From Pseudobdellovibrionaceae bacterium (GTDB lineage Bacteria; Bdellovibrionota; Bdellovibrionia; Bdellovibrionales; UBA1609), in contig CP060220.1 of the NCBI GenBank assembly GCA_023898385.1, positions 2,655,683 to 2,719,682 of the forward strand: a DNA stretch of 64,000 nt. Direction: 5' to 3'. The number at the start of each line of letters is the position of its first letter. Position 1 is the first letter of the stretch. The translations under genes were made by a program, and so were the position numbers. The notes under the pieces are model-generated. The model was not told where the DNA came from and searched no databases. It saw only the letters and a program-made list of their open reading frames with translations. Below, one piece after another: positions 11,705-44,749 of the stretch.

Positions 11705-13417
11705 TTAAATTTGTAGGTCACCAGTGGCGGGAGCAATAACCTCAAGCAGGTTGTTAAATACGTTGGCCACCTGTGTGGCCACGGTTATGCCCTGTTCACT
11801 CTTGACGTTTTGAATCTTACCATTTTTATCATATTCAATACTGATACTGCCCAGGCCGGGGCGATCTACTAAGGCGGGCTTGCCAAAGCGCTCCTCATAC
11901 ATAATTGTTACTAGCTTACGAGCTTGGTCTTCAATTAGATTGATGCGACCTTTGCGATCATAGCCAATCTTAATTTTTTGTCCGCTCGAGTTGCTTGCAA
12001 CCACAAGATTGCATTTTTTTGAATCATAAGCGAACTGAGTAGAAATTTCTTTCTGAAGCTTGCGCACAGGTGCCGAGGCTGTTTTTGATTTGCCACCGGC
12101 CTTGGCTTTGGATTCATAGACAAAGTACTTCGTTGAAACCTGTGACACTTTCGTGCATTTTGTTTCATATTTAAAGAACATCTCTCTCGAGGGTTCAGTC
12201 CGCACTTTAAGTAGACCGTTGTCGTAATATTGGTAGCGGGTTCGTTGGGCGTTCTTCAGCACAGAAGTAGGTTTGCCAAAAACATCGTGATAGTAGGTGT
12301 CAGTGACTTCACCATTATTGTCTGACTTGGCTCTGTGTAGATATCGACCGGTCCCGTCTGGCTTTTCGCGATACCAAAATTCATATGAACTTTTGTTGGT
12401 TACCTTTTTGCCGCAAGTTTTCACAACCAAAGATTTGTAGTAGTCTAAAGGCTCTTTTTCAGTATCTTTATATTCGTATTTTTCAACGCACTGGCTGCGA
12501 TCCGTAAAACTCACCACCCAGTCTTTGTCCTTGTTGTATTTGATGTCTTTGAATGTTTTGTCGGGGAACGAAATTTTAGTTAAATTGTGGTGGTCGTCGT
12601 ACTGATAAGAGTAGGTAGATCCCCAAGCATTAGTCATTCCGACCAGATCTTCCCCGTCATGCACATAGCTCACCTTAATGCCGTTGGGACCAACAATTGA
12701 CTGAACCTTTTTTGCAGCACCAGCAAGTTTAAACGAAAGTTTATTTCCATTGTTGTCTACAACACTATCGATTAAACCCGATTTTGGGTCGCGGTTAATG
12801 TTTAGAAAATTTCCGTTGCGATCTTTCATTTGAATAAGTAGGCCGGCAGTATTGAATACTTCGAGAGTCCCGTCTGGCAAGTAGCGGTAGTATTTGCCTT
12901 TGCTAAATTTGATTTTCTCGTTTTCTCTTCCAAGGGCAATATACATGGTGCCAGGTTTCAGTTTCGAGCCGAGATTCAATTGGCGAACAAACTCTTCTCG
13001 AAGGAAAGTGTCAGTTTGAAGATCCTTTTCCAGTTTAGTAAAAAAAGAAGGCGTCATTTTGGGATTTCTTTTTTTCACTTCTTTAACAACTTCAGAAATG
13101 GTTTTTTTAACCTTATCTGGGTCAAAATCACGGGCCAAATAATCCACTTCCTGGCCACCACCACATTGGGTGACTTTAACGTTCCCTTCAGCTGTGGTTT
13201 CGAGCTTGGTCTCGAAATCAGAACACCACCCAAAACCAAACATGCCATTAAAAAGGGTACGGCTGTTGTAAGTTCGTTGAATTCGAAGATCATAACCTGA
13301 GTTAGGTACAATCAGATCCAACCAAGTATCAGAAAAATTCGCATTGCGCATATCCACAATGCCAAAAGCCACAGATGGCATCCATGCCAAAACCAAAAGC
13401 CCAAAAAGCTTCCTCAT
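11705..13417 (-). CDS. Secreted YD-repeat (RHS-family) protein
   Basis: Signal peptide, then repeated YD-type units (YQYDDHHNLTKISFPD, RYQYYDNGLLKVRTEP, IGYDRKGRINLIEDQ, IEYDKNGKIQNV, DRNGNFLNINRDPKSGLIDSVVDNNGN). ATG 13417 preferred over the track's TTG 13420. No recognisable C-terminal toxin domain. Confidence 0.75.
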   Translation of the reverse strand: MRKLFGLLVLAWMPSVAFGIVDMRNANFSDTWLDLIVPNSGYDLRIQRTYNSRTLFNGMFGFGWCSDFETKLETTAEGNVKVTQCGGGQEVDYLARDFDPDKVKKTISEVVKEVKKRNPKMTPSFFTKLEKDLQTDTFLREEFVRQLNLGSKLKPGTMYIALGRENEKIKFSKGKYYRYLPDGTLEVFNTAGLLIQMKDRNGNFLNINRDPKSGLIDSVVDNNGNKLSFKLAGAAKKVQSIVGPNGIKVSYVHDGEDLVGMTNAWGSTYSYQYDDHHNLTKISFPDKTFKDIKYNKDKDWVVSFTDRSQCVEKYEYKDTEKEPLDYYKSLVVKTCGKKVTNKSSYEFWYREKPDGTGRYLHRAKSDNNGEVTDTYYHDVFGKPTSVLKNAQRTRYQYYDNGLLKVRTEPSREMFFKYETKCTKVSQVSTKYFVYESKAKAGGKSKTASAPVRKLQKEISTQFAYDSKKCNLVVASNSSGQKIKIGYDRKGRINLIEDQARKLVTIMYEERFGKPALVDRPGLGSISIEYDKNGKIQNVKSEQGITVATQVANVFNNLLEVIAPATGDLQI

Positions 13418-13444
13418 CAAACGCTCCTTGTGATGAAAATGCTA

Positions 13445-13627
13445 CCCGCCTTCGAGAGTGAACAGAGGCCAGCGGGGAAAGTGTGGGGCGCCAGCACCTC
13501 ACGATGTGCATGGCGTATCCGGGTTGCGGCACGCAAGCGACGCAATCCGAAGACGACATGCGGCCACTCGTGCCGTGCTGGCGCCCCACACTTTCCCCGC
13601 TGGCCTCTGTTCACTCTCGAAGGCGGG
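13445..13627. repeat. Foldback element A1: 53-bp perfect inverted arms plus 77-nt imperfect-hairpin core
   Basis: 13445-13497 is the exact reverse complement of 13575-13627. Core 13506-13565 matches 58/60 to the reverse complement of 22099-22158. Confidence 0.9.
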
Positions 13628-13631
13628 CGAA

Positions 13632-14510
13632 CTACACTTTTATTGTAACAATTTTTTTCATTGCAACTCCACCAATAACTTGGAGAGCTAACATAATAAA
13701 GAGAGCAACCCATCCTAAAGGCTTAGTGAACAAGGGCATCACGTAAGCAGGATCAATTGCAAGAAATACAACTAACAATAGAAACGGGACTAAAGTAATA
13801 ATAATTCCTTGTGTGACACCTTGAGCTGTCATGGCTTCGATTTTCTTTTCAACTTTTTGTCGCTCACGAACCGTGGTGTTAATGGTTTGAAAAGTTTCGG
13901 CGAGATTTCCGCCTGTTTCTTTAAGAATAATTACAGAAGTCACAAACATTTGCACATCTTGCCGGGGGATCCGGTCAGCCATTTCTACCAATGCTTCTTC
14001 AAGGGACATCCCCAGGCGAATTTTGTTCAGAACAAGTTTGAATTCTTGAGACAGGGGCCCTGAGAGATTGCCAACCACTCGCTCCATAGACTGAGTGATG
14101 CTTAAACCTGCACTCACACCGTTGGCCATAATGGTCATGCCATCCACCATTTGGTCGACCAGTCGATTGCATCGTTTTTGCCAAAGGTTATTGAGGTATG
14201 TTTTTGGAAGCTGGAGGCCCAGTAAAGTAATGGCGACAGCAAATATTAAGCCGGGCACAACATTGGGCCAAAGCAGTAGAAAAACCACCAGTCCCAGGCC
14301 AAACGAAAGCAGCAAAACTGTGATGGTGATTTTCTTTTTATCCACGTCGAGCATCATTCGATCCATAAGCTCCGTGATTTCTTCTCGCGTGCCGATGGTT
14401 CTCTTGTAGAAGAATCCTATAATCCGATCCGAGTAAAGATAGGATAAGATAAATACAACTATGGCAAAAGCCGGAATGACAAAAAACTCTTCGCTGAATA
14501 ATGCGGTCAC
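13632..14510 (-). CDS. tadB: Tad/Flp pilus assembly inner-membrane protein (T2SS-F family, TadB/TadC-type)
   Basis: 292 aa with a T2SSF domain pattern (MVDGMTIMANGVSAGLSITQSMERVV..LKETGGNLAETFQTINTTVRERQKVEKKIEAMTAQG) and TM helices. Overlaps cpaF by 4 nt. Confidence 0.85.
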   Translation of the reverse strand: MTALFSEEFFVIPAFAIVVFILSYLYSDRIIGFFYKRTIGTREEITELMDRMMLDVDKKKITITVLLLSFGLGLVVFLLLWPNVVPGLIFAVAITLLGLQLPKTYLNNLWQKRCNRLVDQMVDGMTIMANGVSAGLSITQSMERVVGNLSGPLSQEFKLVLNKIRLGMSLEEALVEMADRIPRQDVQMFVTSVIILKETGGNLAETFQTINTTVRERQKVEKKIEAMTAQGVTQGIIITLVPFLLLVVFLAIDPAYVMPLFTKPLGWVALFIMLALQVIGGVAMKKIVTIKV

Positions 14511-16831
14511 TTTTCGCCTCCGCTAGTGCCGTCGCCGGAGGCTTTTTTAAGAGGCTGAGGGCGAGGGCTAGAAGTGGTTGCGGTTTGTGTTCGTGGCCGC
14601 ACAGGTGTGGGGCCAGCTTTTGAGCCCGCCGCTGGAGAATTAGGGTCACTGGCCCCGCCGTTTGATGTGAATAAGTCTCGAGGGACCATTATGCCTCGTT
14701 GCTCAAATTTTTCAATAAAGGTGGGAATACGTCCCATGGCCTGAAACTGCCCAACCACTTTTCGATTTTTATCAAAACCGGTTTCTTTAAATCGGAAGAT
14801 CTCTTGCATGGTGACGGCCTCACCCTGCATGCCAACGATTTCCGTGATGCTGCTGATTTTACGGGAGCCGTCACTGAAACGCGTGATTTGTACGATAAGA
14901 TTGACGGCACTAGCAATTTGCTCTCGAATGGCTCGAGCCGGGAGGTCCATTCCAGCCATTAAACAAAGTGTTTCAAGGCGCGAAATCGCTTCACGAGGGT
15001 TGTTAGAGTGAACTGTGGTCATTGATCCATCGTGGCCTGTATTCATCGCAGCTAGCATATCAAGGGCCGCACCATCGCGAGTTTCTCCCACCACGATGCG
15101 ATCGGGACGCATTCGGAGAGAGTTTCTAATAAGGTCGCGAATTGAAATTTCTCCGGCCCCTTCCATGTTGGCTGGTCGGGTTTCTAGGCGAACCACGTGT
15201 TCTTGTTTCAACTGTAGTTCTGCGGCGTCTTCGACAGTGATGATTCGTTCATTGGTAGGTATAAATCCAGAAAGCACATTCAATAGGGTTGTTTTACCAG
15301 TACCTGTGCCGCCTGATATAATAATGTTCAAGCCTTGTTCCACGCAAATTCTCAAAAAATCAGCCATTCCTCGCGTCATTGATTTGAAACGATCTGTATA
15401 GTCCAAAATAGTTACCCGTTCAGATGGAAATTTTCGAATGGTAACGGCAGGTCCATCGATGGCCAGAGGTTCAATCACCGCATTCACTCGGCTTCCATCG
15501 GCCAGGCGAGCATCGACATAAGGAGTTTTCTCATCGATACGCCGACCTAAAGGAGTAACAATTCTCTCGATGACATTTTTAAGCTGCTGATTGGAAGTGA
15601 ATGTCACGGGGCTTAATTGAATCTTACCACTTTTTTCAATGTAAATTTGTTTCGCGCCATTCACCATGATTTCTGTAACTCGAGCATCTTCCAGCAACTC
15701 TTCGAGCGGGCCAAGGCCCAAGGCTTCATCCAAAACTTGTTTGATCACCTGACCTCGCTCCTCGCGTGACAAGTGAGAGGCCATTCGGTCTGTGAGTTGC
15801 GACACCACACGTGTGGTTTTGTCACGCAGCTCTTTTTCTTTACTGGGGTCACCCTTGGAACTTGTAAGGTCTTTTTTTAGGTCCATTTCGCGAATGAGTT
15901 GATGGTGAATTTGCGCCTTTAATAGACTTGGGGCGTCCATTTCATTTTTTTGCCCTTTAGCCTGTGATCCCGATGGGGCGGTGCTGTCGAGAGCGGGCAG
16001 GTCTGAGGTGGATTGTGTGCCTCGAAGATTTTTTGGCCTAGAAGTGGTTTTTAATTTTTGTAACAAGCCGCCTGTCAGCCGGCGGGCGACATCGCGATAC
16101 CCCTGCGCCATGGGGCTATTGGGGGTGGTTAACATAAAAGGAGCCGATCTTTGCAGCGAAGAGTACGCAGTGGCCTCATCGTTGGCAATGAGACCGATAA
16201 TAGGGCGATTTAGACTTTGTGCAATTGAGTTGGGATTCAATGCATTTCTACCCATCTTATTGATCACCACTTGAACCATTTCGGCCGGCACGGTGGCGGT
16301 CACTAGGTCGTGTAGCATTTTTTTGGTTTGATTGACCACGAGAACTTCTGGAGTTGATACCAAGAGAATGACACTGGCATTTTCAATCGCGGCCATCTGC
16401 AAGTCCTGTAGGTCATTTCCGATATCGGCAATGATAAACTTAAAATGTTGGCTCACTGAATATAATTGTTTTTTAAACAACTCCGGGGATGCGGCAAGAG
16501 TTTGATCGGGAGTTTGCACGGCGCCCAGGTAAGACAATCCTGAGGAATGACCTGTTAGGAGCGAGCTGAGAGTTTGCGCCGTGAGGGAGGCCTTAAATTG
16601 AGTGAGGTCGTTCACGGTTTTGTTCGGTCTCACACCAAGAATGACGTTTTGGTCTCCACAGCTTCTTGCGTCGAGATCAATAAGTAACGTTTTCGACCGC
16701 ATTTCTTGCATCAGAGTAATAGCAAGGTTAGCCGCAAAAACGCTTTTACCGACGCCACCTTTGCCGCCGGCCACTACAATGAGATGTGAGTTTTCGTGAA
16801 TCGCCAAAACACCACTCCTTTGGTTACTCAT
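14507..16831 (-). CDS. cpaF: Fusion ATPase: N-terminal MinD/ParA-like (TadZ/CpaE-type) domain plus C-terminal CpaF/TadA secretion ATPase
   Basis: N-terminal deviant Walker A VVAGGKGGVGKS with a MinD/CpaE-like fold to about aa 265. C-terminal CpaF core (ISGGTGTGKTTLLNVLS, VVGETRDGAALDMLAAMNTGHDGSMTTVHSN). Pro/Ser/Thr-rich tail. Confidence 0.9.
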   Translation of the reverse strand: MSNQRSGVLAIHENSHLIVVAGGKGGVGKSVFAANLAITLMQEMRSKTLLIDLDARSCGDQNVILGVRPNKTVNDLTQFKASLTAQTLSSLLTGHSSGLSYLGAVQTPDQTLAASPELFKKQLYSVSQHFKFIIADIGNDLQDLQMAAIENASVILLVSTPEVLVVNQTKKMLHDLVTATVPAEMVQVVINKMGRNALNPNSIAQSLNRPIIGLIANDEATAYSSLQRSAPFMLTTPNSPMAQGYRDVARRLTGGLLQKLKTTSRPKNLRGTQSTSDLPALDSTAPSGSQAKGQKNEMDAPSLLKAQIHHQLIREMDLKKDLTSSKGDPSKEKELRDKTTRVVSQLTDRMASHLSREERGQVIKQVLDEALGLGPLEELLEDARVTEIMVNGAKQIYIEKSGKIQLSPVTFTSNQQLKNVIERIVTPLGRRIDEKTPYVDARLADGSRVNAVIEPLAIDGPAVTIRKFPSERVTILDYTDRFKSMTRGMADFLRICVEQGLNIIISGGTGTGKTTLLNVLSGFIPTNERIITVEDAAELQLKQEHVVRLETRPANMEGAGEISIRDLIRNSLRMRPDRIVVGETRDGAALDMLAAMNTGHDGSMTTVHSNNPREAISRLETLCLMAGMDLPARAIREQIASAVNLIVQITRFSDGSRKISSITEIVGMQGEAVTMQEIFRFKETGFDKNRKVVGQFQAMGRIPTFIEKFEQRGIMVPRDLFTSNGGASDPNSPAAGSKAGPTPVRPRTQTATTSSPRPQPLKKASGDGTSGGEK

Positions 16832-16877
16832 CGGAATAGTGGAAAAAAATAATGAGTCTAAATTTTAGGCCGAGCCT

Positions 16878-18398
16878 TTAGTCGCGAATTCGAAACTTGC
16901 GCTTAATGCGGTCCGCACCGGCACTGGCCGAGCTCTTGATGATGGGAGTGACAAAGACCACAAACTGACTCTGGTTGCGGCGAAACGACTTAGAAGCATA
17001 CAGTGAAAACAGCGGGTTGGCGCTGGTATTTTCAGGTAATCGGTTAAAGTCAGTGCCGCTTTCATTAGAAATCAATCCACCCACGGCTGCGCTCATACCA
17101 CTTCGCACGACCACAGAGGTCTGAATTTCTCGACTATTAGTGAGGGGCCCCTTATTTGTAATACCAACTAAGCTTTTCACAGAAAAATTGAGGGCAAGGC
17201 TGACGCTGTCGGACCGAGATCCAATAATTGAAGGGGTCACTGTGGTGCGAATACCTGCATCTTCAAAACTTGTGGAGTTTTGTCCCTCAGAGGTCACTGT
17301 TTGGTACGGGATGCGTTGAACTGATTCGAGCTTTCCTTGTTTACCATCTTCTACAATTAGGCTTGAGCTTTGTAAAACGCGGGCGTGTCCGTGTTCTTTA
17401 GCCCAATTTAGCTTCGGAAGTAGATTTGAGATTGTACCAGTAATGCTAGAAACCACGCCGCCGGGTCCACGGTCTGTGAACTCAAGTTGGGTGTTATCGC
17501 CTATATCAGGAGTCCATTGAAAGCGAAAACCTTTGGTGTAGTCTTTTTTGAGCTCAACGTAATGCACGACAATTTGAATGATCTTATTGGGTGTCTGCTC
17601 GGGAGCCGGTTTTACCTGGATGAGATTTACAATGAGTTCACCACTTACTTGTTTAATCAGTTTATCCATTTCAGCCTGACGTACGACAACGTCAGGCATA
17701 TACGTACGAGCAATCTTAAAGGCTCGCTCCACTTCTTCAGGGCTATTGGCCATACCTTCTAATAAAAATCGTCCGTTCACAGCCGAAACAGTGATCTCAG
17801 GATTACCAATTTTTCGTTCAATAAATTGTGCGATTTTATTTTGGGCAATCACGCTTAGAGTCACAAGAGACGCGGCCAGGTCACCATATTGTTTTACCAC
17901 GCTATGGATGCGATCCATGTCTTTTGGCAATAAGACTTCGCCGTCAACGATGACCCGGTTATTGGCAATTTTAATTTTTACACCTTCAATTTCTGCAAGG
18001 AGCGCTCGAACTTCTCTGGCCACTTTTTGCAGATCCACCTTTTTCACATCCACCCGAATATCATAGATAACGGCGCCGGTGGTGGGATCTTTAATCAAGA
18101 TGGTACCTACGCCGATCTTTTGGGGCACTAGCCGGAGGATTTTTCGGTTTGAATCAAACTGAAGTTTCAAAAGGTTTTTGTATGATCCGCCCTTGTTAAA
18201 ACCGGCAGGGGCTAGGGGCACTCGAATATCACGATCAATGCCTACAAATAGAGAGACATACATCTTTTTTCGTTGGGCAGCTTCAGAAATAGTGGCCGGG
18301 CCGAACAAAAAGACCAAGCTCAACACGGCGAGGAGGGCCAATAGTGGTCCCCTGCGGGCATCGAGTGTGAAATAGTTTTTGCTCATCCAATTCGTCAT
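16878..18398 (-). CDS. cpaC: Tad secretin CpaC/RcpA
   Basis: Signal/TM N-terminus, a BON-like region, and a secretin C-domain (RIPYQTV.., TSVVVRSGMSAAVGGLISNES.., QFVVFVTPIIK). Confidence 0.9.
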   Translation of the reverse strand: MTNWMSKNYFTLDARRGPLLALLAVLSLVFLFGPATISEAAQRKKMYVSLFVGIDRDIRVPLAPAGFNKGGSYKNLLKLQFDSNRKILRLVPQKIGVGTILIKDPTTGAVIYDIRVDVKKVDLQKVAREVRALLAEIEGVKIKIANNRVIVDGEVLLPKDMDRIHSVVKQYGDLAASLVTLSVIAQNKIAQFIERKIGNPEITVSAVNGRFLLEGMANSPEEVERAFKIARTYMPDVVVRQAEMDKLIKQVSGELIVNLIQVKPAPEQTPNKIIQIVVHYVELKKDYTKGFRFQWTPDIGDNTQLEFTDRGPGGVVSSITGTISNLLPKLNWAKEHGHARVLQSSSLIVEDGKQGKLESVQRIPYQTVTSEGQNSTSFEDAGIRTTVTPSIIGSRSDSVSLALNFSVKSLVGITNKGPLTNSREIQTSVVVRSGMSAAVGGLISNESGTDFNRLPENTSANPLFSLYASKSFRRNQSQFVVFVTPIIKSSASAGADRIKRKFRIRD

Positions 18399-18414
18399 TT
18401 CTTATCCAGTTATC

Positions 18415-19290
18415 CTATATATCTTTAAAAGGGCCCGATCGCCGAGTTTTCTTTTGTTGCGGCACAGGCTGCGGTGCCACTCGCGCCGGCTCTCGCACAG
18501 TTTCACGAACTTTTTGTGGGGCCACTTGTCCAAGTACAGTTTGCAAATCTGATGAAGGAATAGGGCGATCTGCGTGATCGCTGGGATGCCTAAGAGTTAA
18601 AAACAATGAACCTGGAGAGGTTGATAGTATGTAAATCAAATTCTGAGCTTGTACAGGTGAGGCTTCCACAGTGACCGAGTTAAACGAAAGATCATCTCGA
18701 ATATTTCGAATATACTCATCTCGTCCTTGCTTTTCAAAAAGTCGGGGCAGTTCGTTGACCACGCGAACACCTGTGGCAAGAATAACCACATCTTGTAAAA
18801 TAGTCTTTATTTCTCGGCGTTGGTTGGCACCCTTGCCGATATCAACGGCGGCCACCACGTCAACTCGGTCACCGGGCTTGATCAGTTTTGCGACGCCACG
18901 CATGTCATCAATTGGAATAGTGACGGCCCGTTTGGATGGGGCCACTTGCATGGCGAGTCCAGTAACGGGGCCTGGTTCCATAATTTTACTGCGCAAGATT
19001 TGTTCTCCAGCTTTAATGGGAGCCAATGCAACTAAACCAACAGCATCTTCGGGGTCGGCTAGATGTTCCGGCTCCAAGTAGCTCACGGGTTTACTCACAA
19101 GCTCCAACATGGAAACATCAATTGTTTGCATTTCATTGATATCAGCTTTTGCCACAACGACTTTTTTCTGAGCTCCAAATTTCTTTGTAAGTTCAGCACT
19201 TTTTTCTTGAGTGTAACTATAAAGAAGAAACACGGCAAAAATGGCGGAAAAAACCGATATCCATAATGTCCTCGTTTCGTTCTGATTCAT
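18415..19290 (-). CDS. cpaB: Flp pilus assembly protein CpaB/RcpC
   Basis: N-terminal TM, SAF-like segment (VVVAKADINEMQTIDVSMLEL..APIKAGEQILRSKI), and RcpC region (RAVTIPIDDMRGVAKLIKPGDRVDVVAAV). Confidence 0.85.
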   Translation of the reverse strand: MNQNETRTLWISVFSAIFAVFLLYSYTQEKSAELTKKFGAQKKVVVAKADINEMQTIDVSMLELVSKPVSYLEPEHLADPEDAVGLVALAPIKAGEQILRSKIMEPGPVTGLAMQVAPSKRAVTIPIDDMRGVAKLIKPGDRVDVVAAVDIGKGANQRREIKTILQDVVILATGVRVVNELPRLFEKQGRDEYIRNIRDDLSFNSVTVEASPVQAQNLIYILSTSPGSLFLTLRHPSDHADRPIPSSDLQTVLGQVAPQKVRETVREPARVAPQPVPQQKKTRRSGPFKDI

Positions 19291-19304
19291 ACACTTACCC
19301 TTTT

Positions 19305-19817
19305 TTATTCACCACAATTTGCGGTGACACAAATGCCGTATCCCACCATCACCCACCCCGGGCTGACCTCGACAGCATTACCGCCATCTTTTCGGTAGGT
19401 TTCTTCAATTTCATAAATTCTTTCTGAATGATCTTTTGAAGTGCCCTTAATTTCTTTCTGAGAGCCTGGACCACGACCAAAGGCTAAGGGCCTCTCAGAG
19501 GCAAAAAAGTTTTGGTCATTACTTAGGTCGGCCTCCGACACCACAGCATGAAAGCGGTAACCTGTGGGTGCGTAGTTGAGCAGGTCACCCTGTCCTTGAT
19601 CTCGAAAAAAGCTTACGTTGGTTCGATTTCGAAAGGTTTCAAAGGCGTAGGTTCGCGCCCCGATGGAATGCAAAATTGCGGTGTGAACAAAACCAAACAG
19701 ACCAAGTCCATAGGTAATGAGAACAACGAAGACGACCACAAGAGGCAGGGCTTCAATAGTGGCAAGACCTTTTTGATTGTTGTGAACATGACAAGGGCGT
19801 TTAATCATTGTCAGCAC
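19305..19817 (-). CDS. TadE-like pseudopilin
   Basis: NQKG|LATIEALPLVVVFVVLITYGLGLF is a TadE-type N-terminal motif. Confidence 0.7.
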   Translation of the reverse strand: MLTMIKRPCHVHNNQKGLATIEALPLVVVFVVLITYGLGLFGFVHTAILHSIGARTYAFETFRNRTNVSFFRDQGQGDLLNYAPTGYRFHAVVSEADLSNDQNFFASERPLAFGRGPGSQKEIKGTSKDHSERIYEIEETYRKDGGNAVEVSPGWVMVGYGICVTANCGE

Positions 19818-20452
19818 CCGTTATCCGAAACAGGTTGATAACCCCGTCGGCTATATCGCCCGGCCTCTTTATAAGAGCCGCTGCCGATTTGTTGGATATG
19901 CTGCCAGCGCTGAGAATTAAAATAGTCACACTGTTTTTGCGTAACCTCCCGAGAAAGAAAGCTACCCACCTTAGTGGTAAAGCCGTCAGAATCATTGCTG
20001 TCGCCGGAGGTGGAGCCAAAAAACGGAATTTGAAAATCCAGGATGTGCGAGGTTAAAGTGATTTGGACGCCGTGAAACGCCTGTCTATCTGGCGGGCTGT
20101 GGTCTGTGTACTGCGAGGCTTCTTTTGCCGGTTCATCAATAATTTTTGCTTCTTTGCTAAGTGTGAACCACCCATTGTCTAGAACGCCGGAAAAAACACC
20201 ATTGTTTCTGAGTTGGGCATACTTTCTTTGAGCATAGTCAAATTGGGACTCGTGATCCTTGTGAGAGCCCAAATAGCTTCGAGCTGTAGCAAAAGTCATA
20301 TATTGAGCTATTTCTACTGTGGTGAGCGTGATTGCCAGTGAAAAAAGAATCACGGTTAAACCCAGTATCAGCGTCATGGCAAACAGGTAGTCAAGGGTGA
20401 TAAAGCCCCGTTGTTTTTTGAGTTTAGAGGGTTTAAGAGTGGACCACTTCAT
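19811..20452 (-). CDS. TadE/TadG-like pseudopilin
   Basis: KKQRG|FITLDYLFAMTLILGLTVILFSLAI is a prepilin-like leader plus hydrophobic helix (D at the usual E position). Operon position between other tad genes. Confidence 0.6.
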   Translation of the reverse strand: MKWSTLKPSKLKKQRGFITLDYLFAMTLILGLTVILFSLAITLTTVEIAQYMTFATARSYLGSHKDHESQFDYAQRKYAQLRNNGVFSGVLDNGWFTLSKEAKIIDEPAKEASQYTDHSPPDRQAFHGVQITLTSHILDFQIPFFGSTSGDSNDSDGFTTKVGSFLSREVTQKQCDYFNSQRWQHIQQIGSGSYKEAGRYSRRGYQPVSDNGC

Positions 20453-20700
20453 TATGGTTTCACCGTTAAGTGTCTTGCATGTTGATTGGGGTGTTTATTG
20501 TAGCTGCGCGAGGGCGGCTCCCATACGCCATTTTCAATCATTCCAGAAAGAGCCAACCATGGGCCATTGACGAGTTGGGCAATCAATTGATTTTGGCGAA
20601 ATGTTTGAGCAATAAAAAGCGTTAATCCAATGACTAAAACCATCATAAGTATAAGTTCAGTGGTCATTTGGCCCAGTTGATTTTTTTTGAGGGTCTTCAT
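20452..20700 (-). CDS. Flp-like minor pilin/pseudopilin (83 aa)
   Basis: Start at ATG 20700, in an ATGA overlap with the peptidase gene stop. MKTLKKNQLG|QMTTELILMMVLVIGLTLFIAQ resembles an Flp-type G|xxxxE leader. Confidence 0.6.
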   Translation of the reverse strand: MKTLKKNQLGQMTTELILMMVLVIGLTLFIAQTFRQNQLIAQLVNGPWLALSGMIENGVWEPPSRSYNKHPNQHARHLTVKP

Positions 20701-21206
20701 AGGCTGCCCCCGAACGGCCCAACTGCCAAATGCGTGAGCCACCCAAAAACCAAAGCCACGGTGAAGGGTATTTTGTGTAATGAAAGCTGTTTTCGGCTTT
20801 TATCAAAAGTGGCAATCTTGGCCGTGTTTTTTAAAAGTTGAATTAGGTCTTTTTGTAGAGTCACTCGAATTAAACCGAGAAGGGCGCCCCAAATAAAAGC
20901 ATACATCAGTACCCACAAAACGGCTGTGGCATCCGTAGCGAGGGCAAAGGCGAAGATTAATTTTACATCACCGCCGCCGATCATGCGGGCTAGAAAAAGA
21001 GGTATGGTTAACCCGATAGCCACAGTCAGTGAAAGCAGGGCGGTTTGCAGGCCAGCCATCCCATTGAATAAACCGGCAGAGCCAATAGCAATAACAGCGG
21101 CCGACAGTGTCAGCCAGTTATGAACTTTTTTTGATCTGAGGTCATCCACCAGGCCCGCAATTAGAATCAGGCTCGGCAAAAGGTAAGACAAGACAGCGAG
21201 GCTCAT
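20697..21206 (-). CDS. cpaA: A24-family prepilin peptidase (CpaA/TadV)
   Basis: Polytopic membrane protein with both catalytic Asp contexts (LIAGLVDDLRSKKVHNWL and MIGGGDVKL). GGAGAAGG RBS before ATG 21206. Confidence 0.85.
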   Translation of the reverse strand: MSLAVLSYLLPSLILIAGLVDDLRSKKVHNWLTLSAAVIAIGSAGLFNGMAGLQTALLSLTVAIGLTIPLFLARMIGGGDVKLIFAFALATDATAVLWVLMYAFIWGALLGLIRVTLQKDLIQLLKNTAKIATFDKSRKQLSLHKIPFTVALVFGWLTHLAVGPFGGSL

Positions 21207-21400
21207 CGTTGAACCTTCTCCCACCTGAGGCGCTGGCCATTGCGCAAAAAGCCGTGCCCCACGGAAATATTGCGTTCCATGCGCGCAGCTAAGCGGGGCG
21301 TGGCATTGCGAAAGGTTTCAATGGGTCCACTGTCACCAAAGAAAACCCCCAACATGATAAACGCATAAATAGATAATAAGAGTATAAACTCGGTACTCAT
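21203..21400 (-). CDS. Small membrane protein (65 aa) whose N-terminus resembles a processed Flp pilin
   Basis: MSTEFILLLSIYAFIMLGVFFG aligns with the post-cleavage part of Flp (AVEYILLLVVVVGIVIFFG). ATGA overlap with the cpaA start. Confidence 0.5.
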   Translation of the reverse strand: MSTEFILLLSIYAFIMLGVFFGDSGPIETFRNATPRLAARMERNISVGHGFLRNGQRLRWEKVQR

Positions 21401-21428
21401 AATAAGTGATTCCTGTAGGTATCAATAC

Positions 21429-21620
21429 TTATTCGCCGAGTGAGACGCCGCCGATACCACCACTGAGTTCATCCACCTTCCCTTTGATGACGGTTTTAAG
21501 TTGCGGACCAAAAAAGATAACGATGCCAACAACTACAACTAAAAGCAGGATGTATTCCACCGCACCTTGGCCGGACTCATCATTCCAAAGTTGTTTTGCA
21601 AATTTTTTGAGATTCTTCAT
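21429..21620 (-). CDS. flp: Flp family type IVb pilin
   Basis: 63 aa. MKNLKKFAKQLWNDESGQG|AVEYILLLVVVVGIVIFFG is the canonical Flp motif. AAGGGGA RBS. Confidence 0.9.
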   Translation of the reverse strand: MKNLKKFAKQLWNDESGQGAVEYILLLVVVVGIVIFFGPQLKTVIKGKVDELSGGIGGVSLGE

Positions 21621-22034: not shown

Positions 22035-22221
22035 CACAGACGAAGGCACAGAGACCAAGACGATTGGATGCGGATGCCTGCGTCTGCCTGGCGCTTTCGG
22101 CCGCATGTCGTCTTCGGATTGCGTCACTGGCGTGCCGCAACCCGGATACGCCATGCACGACGCGAACGGCAGACGCAGGCATCCGCATCCAATCGTCTTG
22201 GTCTCTGTGCCTTCGTCTGTG
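22035..22221. repeat. Foldback element A2: 54-bp perfect inverted arms plus 79-nt core (inverted relative to A1)
   Basis: 22035-22088 is the exact reverse complement of 22168-22221. Core 22099-22158 matches the reverse complement of 13506-13565 at 58/60. Arms are unrelated to the A1 arms. Confidence 0.9.
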
Positions 22222-22254
22222 ATCTGGGTTTTTCTTCTTTTTAGGAGATGGTGA

Positions 22255-38801: not shown

Positions 38802-39011
38802 TTACTTCTTACGACGAGCAGTTTTCTTAGCTGCTTTCTTGCGAGTGGCTTTTTTAGCAGCCTTCTTGCGAGTAGCTTTTTTAGCTGTTTTCTTTGCAGC
38901 TTTTTTGCGAGTAGCTTTTTTAGCTGTTTTCTTAGCTGCTTTTTTACGAGTAGCTTTCTTTGCAGTTGTAGTTGTCTTCTTAGCGGCTTTTTTTCTTTTC
39001 TTCGCTGCCAT
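38802..39011 (-). CDS. Histone H1-like lysine/alanine-rich DNA-binding protein (70 aa)
   Basis: ATG 39011 with an AGGAGG RBS. MAAKKRKKAAKKTTTTAKKATRKKAAKKTAKKATRKK.. is built from 39-bp (13-aa) tandem units. Confidence 0.75.
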   Translation of the reverse strand: MAAKKRKKAAKKTTTTAKKATRKKAAKKTAKKATRKKAAKKTAKKATRKKAAKKATRKKAAKKTARRKK

Positions 39012-39151
39012 GTATATCCTCCTGGGATGTGTTCTTTGTTGTTTACCAAAGTTGGTTACATCTAAAAGTGTACCCACGTGACTCTATTCGTCAATCAAAA
39101 ATATTTCTTTAGCTTTTTTTTTGCATGAAGGGTGTTTTGTGGAGGTGAACA

Positions 39152-39898
39152 GTGAGTTGGATAATTCTCATTCAAATTGTATCCGGATACTGTTTTTTTG
39201 TCCGAACATTAGACAATTTCGCACGAGAACTGGAAATTTCAGCAAGTATGCTGACAAAATTTGGCACTGCATATTCCGTATGGGTTATTTTAGGAGTCAA
39301 AATTTTGTCTTTATCATCTTCATCACTTGCATGTTGGATTCTGGTACCCACCCTCTTACCCTTTGTTATCAAGGCATTCCGAGTTTGGTGGTGGAAAAAA
39401 AACTTAGCTAAGCAGTTTTATTTATTCATCAATGAAATTGTTTTGAACATGCACTCGGGGATGTCTTTGCGGCAATCAATGCGGATGATTTTGCCACAAA
39501 CGCACCCCAGATTTCGCAAAAGATTGGAAAAATTGACGGAATTTGTTGTTTTTTCGCCACACATTTCGCCAAAAACTTTTCTGCCCGAAGAGTGTGAATT
39601 GATCTCTGTACTAAAAAAAATAGATCAAGAGACTCATTCGGGACTTCAGCACATCGAAAATTACCGGAGAAAACTAAAAATCACTTTAGATTTTCGACAT
39701 AGGTCCGGACAAATTTTGGGTCAAATTCGTCTTCAAGCCATCATCTTGAGTGTTTTGTATTCCATCTTGTTGGCCTATTCGATTCAGCAACGATCGTTTT
39801 TTGAATATTTGGAGCTCACTTTTCTATCCATTGGACTCTTCATGTTTGGTTTATTGTGGATATTTTGGGCAGGTCGGAGAATTAAATGGAAGATTTAG
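39152..39898 (+). CDS. T2SS-F family (TadB-like) membrane protein, divergent
   Basis: GTG start with a GGAGG RBS. TM helices flank a T2SSF-like loop (FINEIVLNMHSGMSLRQSMRMIL..HSGLQHIENYRRKLKITLDFRHRSGQILGQIRLQAIIL). Confidence 0.5.
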   Translation: MSWIILIQIVSGYCFFVRTLDNFARELEISASMLTKFGTAYSVWVILGVKILSLSSSSLACWILVPTLLPFVIKAFRVWWWKKNLAKQFYLFINEIVLNMHSGMSLRQSMRMILPQTHPRFRKRLEKLTEFVVFSPHISPKTFLPEECELISVLKKIDQETHSGLQHIENYRRKLKITLDFRHRSGQILGQIRLQAIILSVLYSILLAYSIQQRSFFEYLELTFLSIGLFMFGLLWIFWAGRRIKWKI

Positions 39899-40317
39899 CG
39901 CCGCCACTGAAGTTCGTACTCGCTCTTCGCGTGGGCCTTGAGAGCGGAAACAGCGTGAGTTCCACGATTCAGAGATACACGAAGGCCCACCGAGATGACT
40001 TTTCTCAGGCGCTGGAGAGGATGTTGTTCGATAGGAACCGCGGTATTGAAAATCCGGATTGGATAAATTCAATGCCGAGTGTCTACCGGCGAGCGATTGT
40101 TCGATTGATCATCCGGGGACTGCACGGGCAGCCGATTCTCACTGAAGTTGCGGCCATTGAAGCGGAACTTGTTGCGGCCTGTGATATTGAAATTGAATCC
40201 ACTTTGCAACGACTTCCCGTGATCACTTTGATTCCATTGTTGCTGATTCAGTTTCCAGCATTTTTGATCTTACTCATCGGCCCACTTCTGGGCCAACTCA
40301 TTAAGGGGTTACAATAA
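39886..40317 (+). CDS. T2SS-F family (TadC-like) membrane protein, short and divergent
   Basis: LALRVGLESGNSVSSTIQRY..RLIIRGLHGQPILTEVAAIEAELVAACDIEIESTLQRLPVITLIPLLLIQFPAFLILLIGP matches T2SSF domain logic. Overlaps the upstream gene by 13 nt. Confidence 0.5.
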   Translation: MEDLAPPLKFVLALRVGLESGNSVSSTIQRYTKAHRDDFSQALERMLFDRNRGIENPDWINSMPSVYRRAIVRLIIRGLHGQPILTEVAAIEAELVAACDIEIESTLQRLPVITLIPLLLIQFPAFLILLIGPLLGQLIKGLQ

Positions 40318-40744: not shown

Positions 40745-41818
40745 ATGAGAACGTCAATGGTTCCAGAGAAAATGCCTTATCAACTTGAAAAATGGCTCGG
40801 ACAGGGCACGAGCGCTACTGTGTTTCTAGCTAGCCGAGTGGACGAGGTGTCCGGAGCGCGACAGCAGGTGGCCATCAAGTTTCTTAATTCCGAGAAGTTG
40901 GTCGAGGCATGGAGACAAGAGCTTCAAAGTTTGCAACAAGTGGATTCCCCCTATTGCCTCCGCTTGTTGGGATTTGAGCGCTTTTCCGGCAAGCCAGCAA
41001 TCATCTTGGAATATGTAGAGGGATTAAGTCTTCGGCAATTGGCAGAATGGGGGCCCCTATCTGAGGATCTAATGGTAGAAATCATCGCTCAAGCTCAACA
41101 GGGGCTTAAAGACTTAAATCAAAGAGGACTTAATCACGGAGATTTGAGCCCCGCTAATATGATGATAAATACATCGGGGCAGGTGAAACTTTTAGATTTT
41201 GGATTGGCAAACAGTTCACCCCAAGGACGACAATTTACTCCACCCTTCGCGGCCCCTGAAGTTTTATATGGCGAACCTCACAACTTGTATGCCGACTATT
41301 TCAGCCTGGGCCTGGTTATGTCGTTTCTGGGTTTTTCTCAAAAAAAACTTACAGGATTGTTACACCCCGAGCCTCATCGGCGCACGGGTTTAGCCAGCGA
41401 ATCTTGTCAGGAACTGCGTCAGGTCTTGGGAGAACTAGTAAAAAGTAGAATGCAGGAACTTGCAGACAGAGAAGCCAAAACCAAGGTCCAAGAACAGCAA
41501 AGATCTCATCCTTATTACGCCTTTGGAGTGCTTACATCTATTATATATATTTTTTTAGTTATGGTGCCGGGATCGCAGTCCTGGTCCATGGTCGTGCCTG
41601 GCGAAGGCCAGGCACGGCTTTCCGTATATACAAATGAATGGACCGAAGTCTATTTAGATGGCCAGCGTCTTGGTTACTCACCTATTAAAAACCTTGCCAT
41701 CAAACCGGGTGCCCATCGTCTGAATTGGAATCGGAAAAATAACTCTGGCGAGTCTACGCTGACCATTTTGCCCGAAGAGAGTCTAGTTCTGGGCGATCAA
41801 GATTTTGTTGGTTTCTAG
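40745..41818 (+). CDS. Ser/Thr protein kinase with TM helix and PEGA-like C-terminal domain
   Basis: Gly-loop LGQGTSATVF, VAIKF, catalytic loop HGDLSPANMMI (atypical vs HRDLKPxN), DFG, APE. Then a TM helix (YAFGVLTSIIYIFLVMV) and a PEGA-like segment (RLSVYTNEWTEVYLDGQRLGYSP). Confidence 0.8.
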   Translation: MRTSMVPEKMPYQLEKWLGQGTSATVFLASRVDEVSGARQQVAIKFLNSEKLVEAWRQELQSLQQVDSPYCLRLLGFERFSGKPAIILEYVEGLSLRQLAEWGPLSEDLMVEIIAQAQQGLKDLNQRGLNHGDLSPANMMINTSGQVKLLDFGLANSSPQGRQFTPPFAAPEVLYGEPHNLYADYFSLGLVMSFLGFSQKKLTGLLHPEPHRRTGLASESCQELRQVLGELVKSRMQELADREAKTKVQEQQRSHPYYAFGVLTSIIYIFLVMVPGSQSWSMVVPGEGQARLSVYTNEWTEVYLDGQRLGYSPIKNLAIKPGAHRLNWNRKNNSGESTLTILPEESLVLGDQDFVGF

Positions 41819-41883
41819 AATTATGTATTTAATCGAGGCGAAGTTTCACCTCTTTGACTAAGTCCTGGGGTCCACCTATTGTG

Positions 41884-42045
41884 AAGGCACGCTTCGAAGA
41901 AGCCAACCGCCGCGGGAGCCCACCTGCAAAAAGGCTCAGACATTCGTTCGGCAGCAGTGCTCGCTTTTAGCGAGCACTGCACCGATCCGAACTCGCTTTT
42001 TGCAGATGGGCTCCCGCGGCGGTTGGCTTCTTCGAAGCGTGCCTT
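41884..42045. repeat. Foldback element B1: 50-nt arms (49/50 complementary) plus nested-hairpin core
   Basis: 41884-41933 pairs with 41996-42045 with one mismatch. Segment 41928-42009 is 82/82 identical to 42920-43001. The inner hairpin is gcagtgctcgc-tttta-gcgagcactgc. Confidence 0.9.
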
Positions 42046-42057
42046 TAGATTTTACTT

Positions 42058-42888
42058 TTGGAGTTGTTCTTGGATATTTTTCAGTCGATTTTTTTAGGGA
42101 TCGTTCAGGGTCTTACTGAGTTTTTGCCCATTTCTAGTTCTGGGCACTTGGTAATTTTTCAAGAATTGCTAGGCGTGGAGCAGCACAGTATTGCTTTTGA
42201 TGTAGCGGCTCATTTGGGGACCGTCTTGACGGTCATCACGCTCTATTTTGCAACTGTGCGCCAGATGCTTTGGGAGGTGATCACTTATCCTTCTCATCGA
42301 CGGTTCACTCCTGGCATCAAGCTGATGTTATTGATCGTCGTGGGGAGTGTTCCAACAGCCATCATTGGTCTGAGTCTTAAGGATATGTTTGAGTCGTTGT
42401 TTTCTAATTTGTTGGCTGTGGGTATTTTTTTGACAATCACGGGTTTGATTTTGTTTTTAACTCGAAACAAGGCTCGCATTTCACGGCATATTGATGTGCA
42501 TAGCCTCGAAGACGTAAAGGCCATGCACTACTGGCAGGCAGCACTTATTGGTGTGGCGCAAGGTATGGCTATCGCGCCTGGAATTAGTCGTTCGGGATCG
42601 ACCATAGCAGCGGGCTTGGCACTGGGAATCGATCGAAAAACCACGGCGCTTTTTAGTTTTATGTTGTCATTGCCGGCAATTATGGGCGCTGGATTATTGC
42701 AGTTGCGTCATATTACCAGTTGGGATCACCAAGTGTTGTTGAGCTTAGGTGTGGGCTTTTTGACGGCCTATTTATCGGGTTTGATGGGCTTATGGGGAAT
42801 TTTGTATTTTGTAAAAAAAGGCCGACTTGAATATTTTAGTTATTATCTTTGGGTTGTTGGGCCGGCAGTTATATTCTGGAGCCTATGA
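42058..42888 (+). CDS. uppP: Undecaprenyl-diphosphate phosphatase
   Basis: IVQGLTEFLPISSSGHLVI.., ..GISRSGSTI.. are canonical UppP/BacA motifs. TTG start with no in-frame ATG nearby and no obvious SD. Confidence 0.9.
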   Translation: MELFLDIFQSIFLGIVQGLTEFLPISSSGHLVIFQELLGVEQHSIAFDVAAHLGTVLTVITLYFATVRQMLWEVITYPSHRRFTPGIKLMLLIVVGSVPTAIIGLSLKDMFESLFSNLLAVGIFLTITGLILFLTRNKARISRHIDVHSLEDVKAMHYWQAALIGVAQGMAIAPGISRSGSTIAAGLALGIDRKTTALFSFMLSLPAIMGAGLLQLRHITSWDHQVLLSLGVGFLTAYLSGLMGLWGILYFVKKGRLEYFSYYLWVVGPAVIFWSL

Positions 42889-42889
42889 G

Positions 42890-43023
42890 CCACCAGCCGC
42901 CGCGCCGGAACCCATCTGAAAAAAGGCTCAGACATTCGTTCGGCAGCAGTGCTCGCTTTTAGCGAGCACTGCACCGATCCGAACTCGCTTTTTGCAGATG
43001 GATTCTGGCGCGGCGGCTGGCGG
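42890..43023. repeat. Foldback element B2: 36-nt arms (32/36 complementary) plus the same core as B1, same orientation
   Basis: 42890-42925 pairs with 42988-43023. The core is identical to B1. Starts 1 nt after the uppP stop codon. Confidence 0.9.
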
Positions 43024-43076
43024 ATCATGGGCATCCAAAGGGAATCCGATACCTTTTGGATGGGGAGGGGAAAGAT

Positions 43077-43286
43077 ATGGAAACTACAAAATCATGGAAC
43101 TTGCAAAAAGAACAATTGGAAGTTCTCGAACAACTTGTTGAAGAGCTCATGAAAGACGAGCCCTGTGAGGATACGGTCAAGTCGTATATGGGTCAGACAG
43201 GGATTCCCTATACATCTGATCCCATTGAGCGTATTAACGTTGTGTTGAGAGCCTTGAATTTTTCAGAACCAGAGAGAGAAGTTTAG
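43077..43286 (+). CDS. Small acidic hypothetical protein (69 aa)
   Basis: ATG 43077 preceded by GGAGGGG. METTKSWNLQKEQLEVLEQLVEELMKDEP.. Stop lies 2 nt before the next gene. Confidence 0.45.
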   Translation: METTKSWNLQKEQLEVLEQLVEELMKDEPCEDTVKSYMGQTGIPYTSDPIERINVVLRALNFSEPEREV

Positions 43287-43288
43287 TT

Positions 43289-44446
43289 ATGACTGATAGG
43301 GACAATCAAAGTTTAGGATTTGAGACCCGGGCCATTCATGCCGGTCAAAAACCAGATCCCACAACCGGCGCCATTATGACTCCCATTTATTTATCAAGCA
43401 CATTTGTGCAGGAGTCACCCGGCCATCATACAGGATTTGAATACAGCCGCACCGGAAATCCCACTCGCACCGCTTATGAAGCATGTATTGCAAGCCTTGA
43501 AGGTGGACGATTTGGGTTTGCATTCGCTTCAGGTTGTGCCGCTTCAACAACAGTGATGCATATTCTTAAGGCCGGCGACCACGTGGTGGCCTGTGACGAC
43601 ATATATGGGGGAAGCTTTCGGCTTTTTGATAAAATCATTCGAAACAACGGCATCGATTTTAGTTTTGTGGACCTCACCGATGTAAACCAATTTGCCGCAG
43701 CCATTAAGCCTGAGACTCGTCTGGTTTGGATCGAGTCGCCGACAAATCCCATGTTAAAACTCATGGACATCAAAAAATTGTCGGAGATGGCGCACAAACA
43801 CAATATTTTGGTGGCTGTTGATAATACATTTATGAGCCCCTATTTTCAAAAACCATTGAGCCTTGGGGCCGATATAGTGGTTCACTCGGCGACAAAGTTT
43901 ATTAATGGACACAGCGATATAGTAGGCGGCGTGATTGTGACCGATCGTGATGATCTGGCCGAGAAAATCGCCTTTTTGAGTAATTCTATGGGACCGGTAG
44001 CGGCGACATTTGATTCTTATATGTGTTTGCGAAGTTTGAAAACTTTGGCTGTGCGGATGCGAGCGCATCAAGAAAATGCCATAGCCATAGCCCAATTTTT
44101 AGAGGGCCATCCCAAAATAGAAAAAGTCATTTACCCAGGACTGGCCAGTCATCCCCAACATGGTTTAGCTAAAGAGCAGATGTCAGGTTATGGGGGCATG
44201 ATCAGTGCCTATTTAAAGGGAGGATTGTCAGAGGCACGAGCCTTTTTGGAAAAGGTAAAAATCTTCAGCTTGGCGGAGAGTTTAGGCGGAGTGGAGTCCC
44301 TTGTGGAGCACCCTGCGATTATGACCCACGCCAGTGTGCCCGCAGAAACTCGACGGGCCCTGGGCATTGCCGACAACTTTGTGCGATTGAGTGTGGGTAT
44401 TGAGACCCAGGATGACCTGATAAAGGATCTTGAACAGGCACTATGA
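43289..44446 (+). CDS. Cystathionine gamma-synthase/gamma-lyase family PLP enzyme
   Basis: Cys/Met-metabolism PLP family: ..YSRTGNPT.., ..VVHSATKFINGHSD.. (PLP lysine), 385 aa. Confidence 0.9.
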   Translation: MTDRDNQSLGFETRAIHAGQKPDPTTGAIMTPIYLSSTFVQESPGHHTGFEYSRTGNPTRTAYEACIASLEGGRFGFAFASGCAASTTVMHILKAGDHVVACDDIYGGSFRLFDKIIRNNGIDFSFVDLTDVNQFAAAIKPETRLVWIESPTNPMLKLMDIKKLSEMAHKHNILVAVDNTFMSPYFQKPLSLGADIVVHSATKFINGHSDIVGGVIVTDRDDLAEKIAFLSNSMGPVAATFDSYMCLRSLKTLAVRMRAHQENAIAIAQFLEGHPKIEKVIYPGLASHPQHGLAKEQMSGYGGMISAYLKGGLSEARAFLEKVKIFSLAESLGGVESLVEHPAIMTHASVPAETRRALGIADNFVRLSVGIETQDDLIKDLEQAL

Positions 44447-44520: not shown

Positions 44521-44596
<76 letters not shown>

Positions 44597-44601
44597 AAAA
44601 T

Positions 44602-44630
44602 AAAAAAGCCCGAGTGGGCTTTTTTTATTT
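44602..44630 (+). terminator. Rho-independent terminator after tRNA-Phe
   Basis: aaaaaAGCCCgagtGGGCTttttttattttt. Confidence 0.75.
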
Positions 44631-44749
44631 TTGATGGTTTGGCCGAAGCCAAACCATGATGGTCTCCGACCTTCTCCTCGCTTTGCTCGTCGTGCGGTCT
44701 CGACCACAAGCTGCATCAAAATGCTTTGCATTTTGCCGCAGTCTTGAAA

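Follow-up and report, generated by a model that had tools for sequence, protein, structure and literature searches.

Correia elements of Neisseria and ERIC sequences are short non-autonomous insertions in intergenic spacers that are transcribed into long hairpins, possible targets of RNase III. In the attC sites of integrons it is the structure rather than the sequence that is conserved. Compensatory changes across the hairpin are common in REPINs, whose relevant form is thought to be a hairpin of either single-stranded DNA or RNA (PMC3116915). Template switching makes perfect stems and multibase compensatory changes in one step, and it expands or homogenises the arms of inverted repeats (PMC8794818; also PMC13100816 and PMC8604942).

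The region 42890-43023 of the 64-kb stretch of DNA analysed here (the window) is the homologous portion of a longer palindrome, B2, whose stem can be drawn over the whole interval listed in Table 1. A direct copy, B1, is found 992 bp upstream. The best explanation is that B1 and B2 are copies of one palindromic insertion element, GC-rich and non-coding, in the genome of an uncultured member of the Pseudobdellovibrionaceae, and that they form, together with the two other giant hairpins of the window, a small set made up of families A and B; the explanation developed below has, taken as a whole, about an even chance of being right.

Table 1. Positions in the window of the giant hairpins, of their parts and of the gene bracketed by B1 and B2.
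Feature	Position	Strand	Remarks
A1 giant hairpin	13445..13627	-	60-nt arms, 97% complementary; core in minus orientation
A2 giant hairpin	22035..22221	+	54-nt arms, 100% complementary; 60-nt core
B1 giant hairpin element	41884..42045	+	162 nt; 50-nt arms, 98% complementary; 62-nt spacer
Identical 82-bp block, B1 copy	41928..42009	+	off-centre: extends 6 nt into the left arm and 14 nt into the right arm
uppP (undecaprenyl-diphosphate phosphatase)	42070..42888	+	PF02673; TTG start at 42070; bracketed by B1 and B2
B2 giant hairpin element	42878..43036	+	~159 nt; arms 42881-42925 and 42988-43032, 45 nt, 87% complementary
B2 inner left arm	42890..42925	+	homologue of B1 41900-41933; holds the mirrored differences, including a CC insertion
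Identical 82-bp block, B2 copy	42920..43001	+	apical 12-bp stem GCAGTGCTCGCT/AGCGAGCACTGC; lower stems with bulges
B2 inner right arm	42988..43023	+	homologue of B1 41996-42029; holds the complementary changes, including a GG insertion
B2 outer right arm	43022..43036	+	without counterpart in B1

The four elements follow a common plan in which a conserved, imperfect apical core of 60-82 nt is carried by GC-rich basal arms of 45-60 bp. The GC content of the arms is 59-68%, against 42-49% for the window, and their complementarity amounts to 87% in B2 and 97-100% in A1, A2 and B1. All four are predicted to form highly stable RNA folds (dG -112 to -167 kcal/mol, z -13 to -19), the values being -138 kcal/mol for B1 (z = -17.8 against dinucleotide shuffles) and -112 kcal/mol for B2 (z = -13.4). 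Folding of the two B elements as single-stranded DNA gives z = -11 to -16 for either strand.

The cores of A1 and A2, which are imperfect and 60 nt long, are identical at 58/60 positions, and one of the two differences converts a G·U of the sense strand to A-U. The arms around them show no detectable homology between A1 and A2 (p = 0.13-0.20; shared k-mers at chance level) and no detectable similarity to the arms of the B elements. A weak similarity that depends on orientation is found between the A and B cores (score 22 versus a shuffle mean of 11, p = 0.016). A GAAGGC(AC) or GCCAAC-like motif, considered as a shared terminal motif of the A1, A2 and B1 arms, occurs at chance level. The sequences just 3' of the hairpins are pairwise alike, possibly by chance or as a short tail of the element: A1 TAGCATTTTCA (13420-13444, minus strand) resembles B1 TAGATTTTAC (42046-42060), and A2 ATCTGGG (22222-22235) resembles B2 ATCATGGG (43023-43036).

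In the MAFFT alignment of B1 and B2 the inner arms are common to both copies and the outer arms are unrelated. The outer right arm of B2 corresponds, with some divergence, to the reverse complement of the native uppP 3' end: in the fold it pairs with 42878-42891, making 13 pairs over ~16 positions, and the stem at its base takes in the stop codon of uppP (42886-42888). The carboxyl terminus of UppP (...FWSL) is typical of the family, which shows that the left side of the B2 outer stem is native sequence.

Pfam annotation of the window gives Tad pilus genes, housekeeping genes and a protein of the RHS type; it reveals no transposase, integrase, reverse transcriptase or element-linked nuclease in the 64 kb. 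The two A copies are inverted, ~8.5 kb apart, and flank an 8.4-kb Tad/Flp pilus operon. The window has two Tad/Flp pilus loci, at 11705-21620 and 39152-40317. The first codes for a fused CpaE-CpaF ATPase (774 aa), a fusion kept across Bdellovibrionales-type relatives, and after this locus comes an RHS/DUF6531 protein whose synteny is conserved. A Lys/Ala-rich, histone-H1-like basic protein (…AAKKTAKKATRKKAAKK…) is encoded on the minus strand at 38802-39077, with tandem repeats of 27/12-nt period at 38817-38965. A tRNA-Phe(GAA) gene at 44521-44596 is directly followed by an AT-rich, terminator-like inverted repeat (44586-44642).

All four hairpins occupy spacers and precede a start codon by 23-44 nt; the genes on the two sides are co-directional at A1, B1 and B2 and divergent at A2. 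In 4/4 elements the core points the way in which the neighbouring downstream gene is transcribed, and its orientation is independent of the leading strand, A1 being reversed although GC skew is positive throughout the window. B1 lies between a Ser/Thr kinase gene, which ends at 41818, and uppP. A sigma-70-like match at 41854-41882 (TTGACT, 17 nt, TATTGT) stops 2 nt short of the B1 stem, so that B1 could form the 5' leader of a uppP transcript; such matches are not above chance in the region.

UppP and the fused CpaE-CpaF ATPase are 100% identical to proteins assigned to a Pseudobdellovibrionaceae metagenome-assembled genome; the nearest relatives share only 62% identity in UppP and 69-71% in the ATPase. 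The gene order kinase-uppP-small ORF-metB is kept in four relatives, showing that uppP is native at its present position. In those four the spacer between kinase and uppP ranges from an overlap to 30 nt and the one between uppP and the next gene from 32 to 92 nt; these spacers are AT-rich (25-48% GC) and contain no large hairpin. The spacer between tadB and the RHS gene measures only 24-38 nt in three relatives, and the flanking coding sequence is conserved at the nucleotide level. The conserved end of tadB reads TTGTTACAAT[A/T]AAAGT..., and in the window its stop codon is followed by TTCG, the 183 nt of A1, 27 nt and the next start codon. By this comparison, A1 is a precise insertion of 183 nt placed 4 nt past the tadB stop codon, with both arms being extra DNA. 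The short, hairpin-free spacers of the relatives show the hairpins to be lineage-specific insertions into very short native spacers. At A1 a fold-back model, in which the arms are inverted copies of native flank, is rejected on the grounds that the native spacer has only ~31 nt. No consistent target-site duplication is seen at the flanks of the four elements, only A2 having a possible CTGGG on both sides, and no excision polymorphism of the hairpins was found.

One relative (~67% CpaEF identity) has a hairpin of its own, ~95 nt long, at L037:9860-9952 and also at L038:4456-4548. It consists of a 30-bp stem and a small apical hairpin, followed by a U-tract, and sits between the secretin gene and cpaEF, where the window has a spacer of 46 nt; it is unrelated to the A and B elements. 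Long-stem hairpins in spacers may be a wider habit of this clade.

The conserved gene order bears directly on a reading of B1 and B2 as integron attC-like sites that make uppP a mobile gene cassette. Two direct, homologous, imperfect palindromes bracket a single gene, attC sites conserve structure over sequence, and the GCCAAC...GTTGGC of B1 resembles the RYYYAAC/GTTRRRY core sites at 6/7 positions on each side. B2, however, has GCCAGCC/GGCTGGC at that place and no GTT core site, the same gene order is found without hairpins in distant relatives, there is no integrase in the window, and a conserved centre between variable ends is the reverse of attC. The missing core sites and the conserved synteny effectively refute the cassette, to which we attach a negligible probability.

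Further copies were sought with the B-core pattern CATTCGTTCGG-N(25-45)-CCGATCCGAAC in GTDB representative genomes, JGI metagenomes and IMG/VR. The GTDB genomes gave 7 matches, all by chance and in GC-rich coding DNA. Of 7 matches in the JGI metagenomes only those on contigs L014 and L018 are real, and these are the same two loci of the same organism. IMG/VR gave one chance match for the B core, and the A core, sought there too, gave none. Peptides from six-frame translation of the two cores had no match at E <= 10 among 5.8 billion proteins, and blastn of all four elements found none among 50,697 phage and 72,556 plasmid records. The 64-kb window is free of further large inverted repeats and of cores or arms standing alone, no hairpin occurs in the 10 kb past its right end (contig L020), and ~90 kb of relatives' DNA contain neither an A or B core nor a giant hairpin. 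The copies seen are two per family, close together.

Short-read contigs from independent samples of the same organism contain B2 whole and B1, A1 and A2 in part, which rules out an assembly artefact. Contigs L002, L014, L031, L033 and L034 begin or end inside hairpins, L034 running exactly from the right arm of A1 to the left arm of A2. The hairpins thus break short-read assemblies of this organism, and such elements are probably under-sampled in metagenome-assembled genomes. No strain-level variation was found within the hairpins across these samples; the differences are a SNP at 43041, just outside B2, a SNP at 45190 and, inside uppP, a 3-nt indel, which is a deletion of CAG (42538-42540) on JGI contig L014.

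The first-pass annotation of this DNA had described the inner arms of B1 and B2 as homologous, with a diverged block whose complements are carried by the right arms. Alignment and pair counts bear this out. In the MAFFT alignment of the two copies columns i and 135-i are partners, gaps occur at mirrored places and 36 arm pairs are defined, of which 27 are invariant (25 of them with letters in both copies). Both sides changed and kept Watson-Crick pairing in 4/36 pairs (columns 1, 2, 7 and 21). The CC inserted at columns 16-17 of the left arm has its exact mirror in the GG inserted at columns 118-119 of the right arm. A single change yields G·U (column 18) and four yield mismatches, in B2 at columns 3, 22 and 30 and in B1 at column 26. 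The arm sequences quoted by that annotation are correct save for one base, the left arm of B2 starting with ACCAGCC... and not GCCAGCC..., and its count for B2 of four mismatches in 36 positions, one being a G-T wobble, agrees with the four non-Watson-Crick positions found here, one of which is G·T.

The mirroring of the arms between B1 and B2 is real and beyond chance, as seen in a single pair of sequences. When independent mutation of the arms is simulated, the probability of at least two compensated pairs among the clearly homologous columns 3-36 is 0.012-0.028, and adding columns 1-2 lowers it to P <= 6e-4; these values leave out the mirrored indel and have the one sequence pair B1/B2 underlying them. 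A shuffle control of the pair counts has, with two rows, a floor of 30/500. One-sided, uncompensated changes make up 5 of ~10 change events, one of the five being the G·U, which indicates that the pairing of B2 is decaying and is not strictly maintained.

Such mirrored changes had been read beforehand as the outcome either of selection for structure or of arm-to-arm copying. A structured cis-acting RNA (an RNase III site, an mRNA stabiliser or a long-stem terminator), with the basal pairing and the apical sequence under selection and the mirrored changes arising as compensatory substitutions, would agree with the location of the four elements in transcribed spacers, close to a start codon and sense to the downstream gene, and with the extreme stability of their RNA folds. 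The relative's hairpin with a 30-bp stem and a U-tract, which occupies a different spacer of this tad operon, can be counted on the same side. The match between core orientation and downstream gene in 4/4 elements, and not with the leading strand, could reflect a constraint at the RNA level, and the G·U to A-U difference in the A cores, on the sense strand, is a weak hint of RNA pairing.

Several observations speak against this RNA. At the gathering threshold Rfam 15 matches only tRNA in the window, so that no family is assigned to the elements, and in E-value mode only models of long-hairpin plant miRNA precursors appear, with 31-96 bits against thresholds of 100-268. A scan of 41500-43400 revealed no terminator-like site at B1 or B2. 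B2 is followed by AAAGGG, and B1, A1 and A2 only by interrupted U-rich stretches a few nt downstream, which are not the tract of an intrinsic terminator. The sense and antisense strands of all four elements fold equally well, the antisense strand of the B core being even more stable (-43.8 versus -37.8 kcal/mol), and the sense strand is not enriched in G·U. The four non-Watson-Crick positions of B2, for which RNA compatibility had been proposed as a check, give one G·U when read as sense RNA and two as antisense, with no preference for a strand. No G·U occurs in the arms of A2 (54 bp) and B1 (50 bp) nor in the 58 arm pairs formed in A1; stems of 49-58 Watson-Crick pairs with zero G·U are unlike a balance of selection and mutation acting on RNA. 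The mirrored 2-nt indel would need two independent insertions under selection. Moreover, the elements are missing from all relatives examined, which argues against a conserved regulatory feature, and divergence under selection for pairing cannot give the unrelated arms of A1 and A2 beside a core that is 97% identical. Selection on an RNA structure is therefore an unlikely cause of the mirrored arms.

The combination of long stems with strict Watson-Crick pairing, a mirrored indel and unrelated perfect arms around a near-identical core argues for templated copying of the arms and not for an RNA selection-mutation balance. We hold with moderate confidence that the mirrored pattern fits arm-to-arm copying of DNA better than selection for RNA structure; of the two causes suggested beforehand, copying is favoured by the mirrored indel, the lack of G·U and the lack of strand preference, and RNA-structure selection, which is not supported, keeps a minor probability. 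The mirrored differences, including the 2-nt indel, would arise when, in the course of replication, an intramolecular template switch at a quasipalindrome makes one arm the template of the other. The same process may also lengthen the arms into the flank, as in the B2 outer arm that pairs with the uppP stop region. What is seen in the elements, namely mirrored changes with a mirrored indel and an arm that extends into the flank, is the pattern expected from template switching and not the event itself.

The explanation that we prefer, and on which our opinion is evenly balanced, is that the hairpins are non-coding palindromic insertions in which template switching maintains the symmetry of the arms and in which local homogenisation, or copying from a master, acts on the core. 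Being inside or just upstream of transcription units, in sense orientation, the elements would be transcribed into extremely stable hairpins. These would probably serve as targets of RNase III, blocks to exonucleases or terminator-like insulators; such a role would follow from the insertion and would not have caused the mirrored changes.

The core follows a different course from the arms. The longest block identical between B1 and B2 is exactly 82 bp, at the coordinates reported for it previously. The arms of the two copies differ at 14% of sites, and at that rate the probability of finding no difference in 82 nt is ~4e-6, which implies that the core is either constrained in sequence or homogenised. 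The earlier reading of a core that was homogenised or recently propagated is favoured by these figures, with sequence constraint as the alternative. As direct copies 992 bp apart, B1 and B2 are good substrates for gene conversion, and the 82-bp identity may be kept up by conversion between them or by a master copy that overwrites both. The stretch of right arm inside the identical block faces a mismatch in the left arm of B1 and of B2 alike, which is better accommodated by a third sequence that overwrote the two than by simple conversion from B1 to B2.

This mismatch would also fit a nested or mosaic origin, in which the 60-82-nt core is a tiny mobile unit that inserted at the centre of older palindromic repeats and the outer arms are the split halves of those repeats, a master core having overwritten both B copies. 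Such an origin would give the same core within the unrelated arms of A1 and A2 and the differing layers of the B elements, whose inner arms are common and whose outer arms are specific to each locus. Internal loops and mismatches do occur at the boundaries between core and arms, and the weak, orientation-specific similarity of the A and B cores (p = 0.016) can be added. There are, however, 0 solo arm palindromes or solo cores in the 64-kb window, in the 10 kb beyond it and in ~90 kb of relatives. The window has no candidate enzyme, and an autonomous, target-seeking unit of 60-80 nt is without verified precedent. We regard nested insertion as quite improbable.

The source of the arms of family A is a separate matter. 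A1 and A2 have unrelated arms, each 97-100% self-complementary, next to cores identical at 58/60 positions, which excludes compensatory drift from a common ancestor. Template switching accounts for the upkeep of symmetry and not for the source of these arms. Arms that are unique, GC-rich and unlike host DNA on a conserved apical module, in a host that by its source name belongs to a predatory clade, could be imagined as programmable hairpins: the arms would be acquired in the manner of spacers and give rise to long double-stranded RNA or small guide RNAs directed at nucleic acids of prey or of foreign origin, with the core as a handle for processing or loading. The arms, however, match nothing in the phage and plasmid records searched nor elsewhere in the window, no nuclease, Argonaute or Cas gene linked to the elements is present in the window, and the elements are scattered over operon spacers and form no array. 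A programmable system of this kind is very improbable.

Either nested insertion of the core into older palindromes or fold-back synthesis on a single-stranded intermediate would explain the architecture. A bolder proposal, to which we give only a small likelihood, joins the latter to the behaviour of the core: a conserved, imperfect apical module of 60-82 nt would be propagated or overwritten from a master, and each insertion would receive unique, perfectly self-complementary arms of its own, 45-60 bp long, from self-primed (fold-back) synthesis on the single-stranded intermediate, amounting to a new mode of transposition or a programmable source of long double-stranded RNA. If the copying of arms is confirmed, the preferred explanation would provide a natural example in bacteria of stem substitutions that look compensatory and yet are products of DNA copying without RNA selection, and this matters for the use of covariation as proof of a functional RNA.

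Among the described systems, integron attC sites share with B1 and B2 the imperfect palindromes that bracket a gene and the keeping of structure over sequence. They differ in that B2 is devoid of core sites, the window lacks an integrase, uppP is syntenic in relatives and the conservation is reversed.

Quasipalindrome or template-switch mutation (Ripley-type; Mönttinen & Löytynoja 2022, PMC8794818) resembles the elements in its multibase compensatory changes made in one step, mirrored indels, perfect stems free of G·U and extension of arms. It is a process and not an element, known here from its pattern only, and it leaves unexplained the insertion, the conserved asymmetric core and the unrelated arms of A1 and A2. 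Fold-back priming and palindrome-centred inverted duplication (E. coli, PMC3315005; yeast, PMC10622511) have in common with the elements an axis formed by an imperfect inverted repeat with new perfect arms on both sides. They copy native flank, usually over kilobases, while at A1 both arms are foreign to the site.

REPINs, which are REP doublets mobilised by RAYT (PMC3116915), are likewise intergenic non-coding hairpin repeats on a scale of ~100 nt. They have conserved ends (the REP 16-mers), a variable spacer and tens to hundreds of copies, in contrast to the A and B elements, where it is the centre that stays constant (82/82 in B, 58/60 in A), the arms vary and two copies per family are seen; no RAYT (Y1 HUH transposase) gene is present in the 64-kb window. 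Bacterial MITEs such as Correia and ERIC are also short intergenic insertions in operon spacers that yield long hairpins in mRNA. MITE families are defined by target-site duplications and by terminal inverted repeats common to their members; the arms of A1 and A2 have no sequence in common, and neither hallmark was found in the A and B elements. Their architecture, with a conserved asymmetric centre and long, perfect, unrelated arms, is the reverse of that of MITEs and REPINs and may reflect a mechanism, not described so far, by which palindromes are made or moved.
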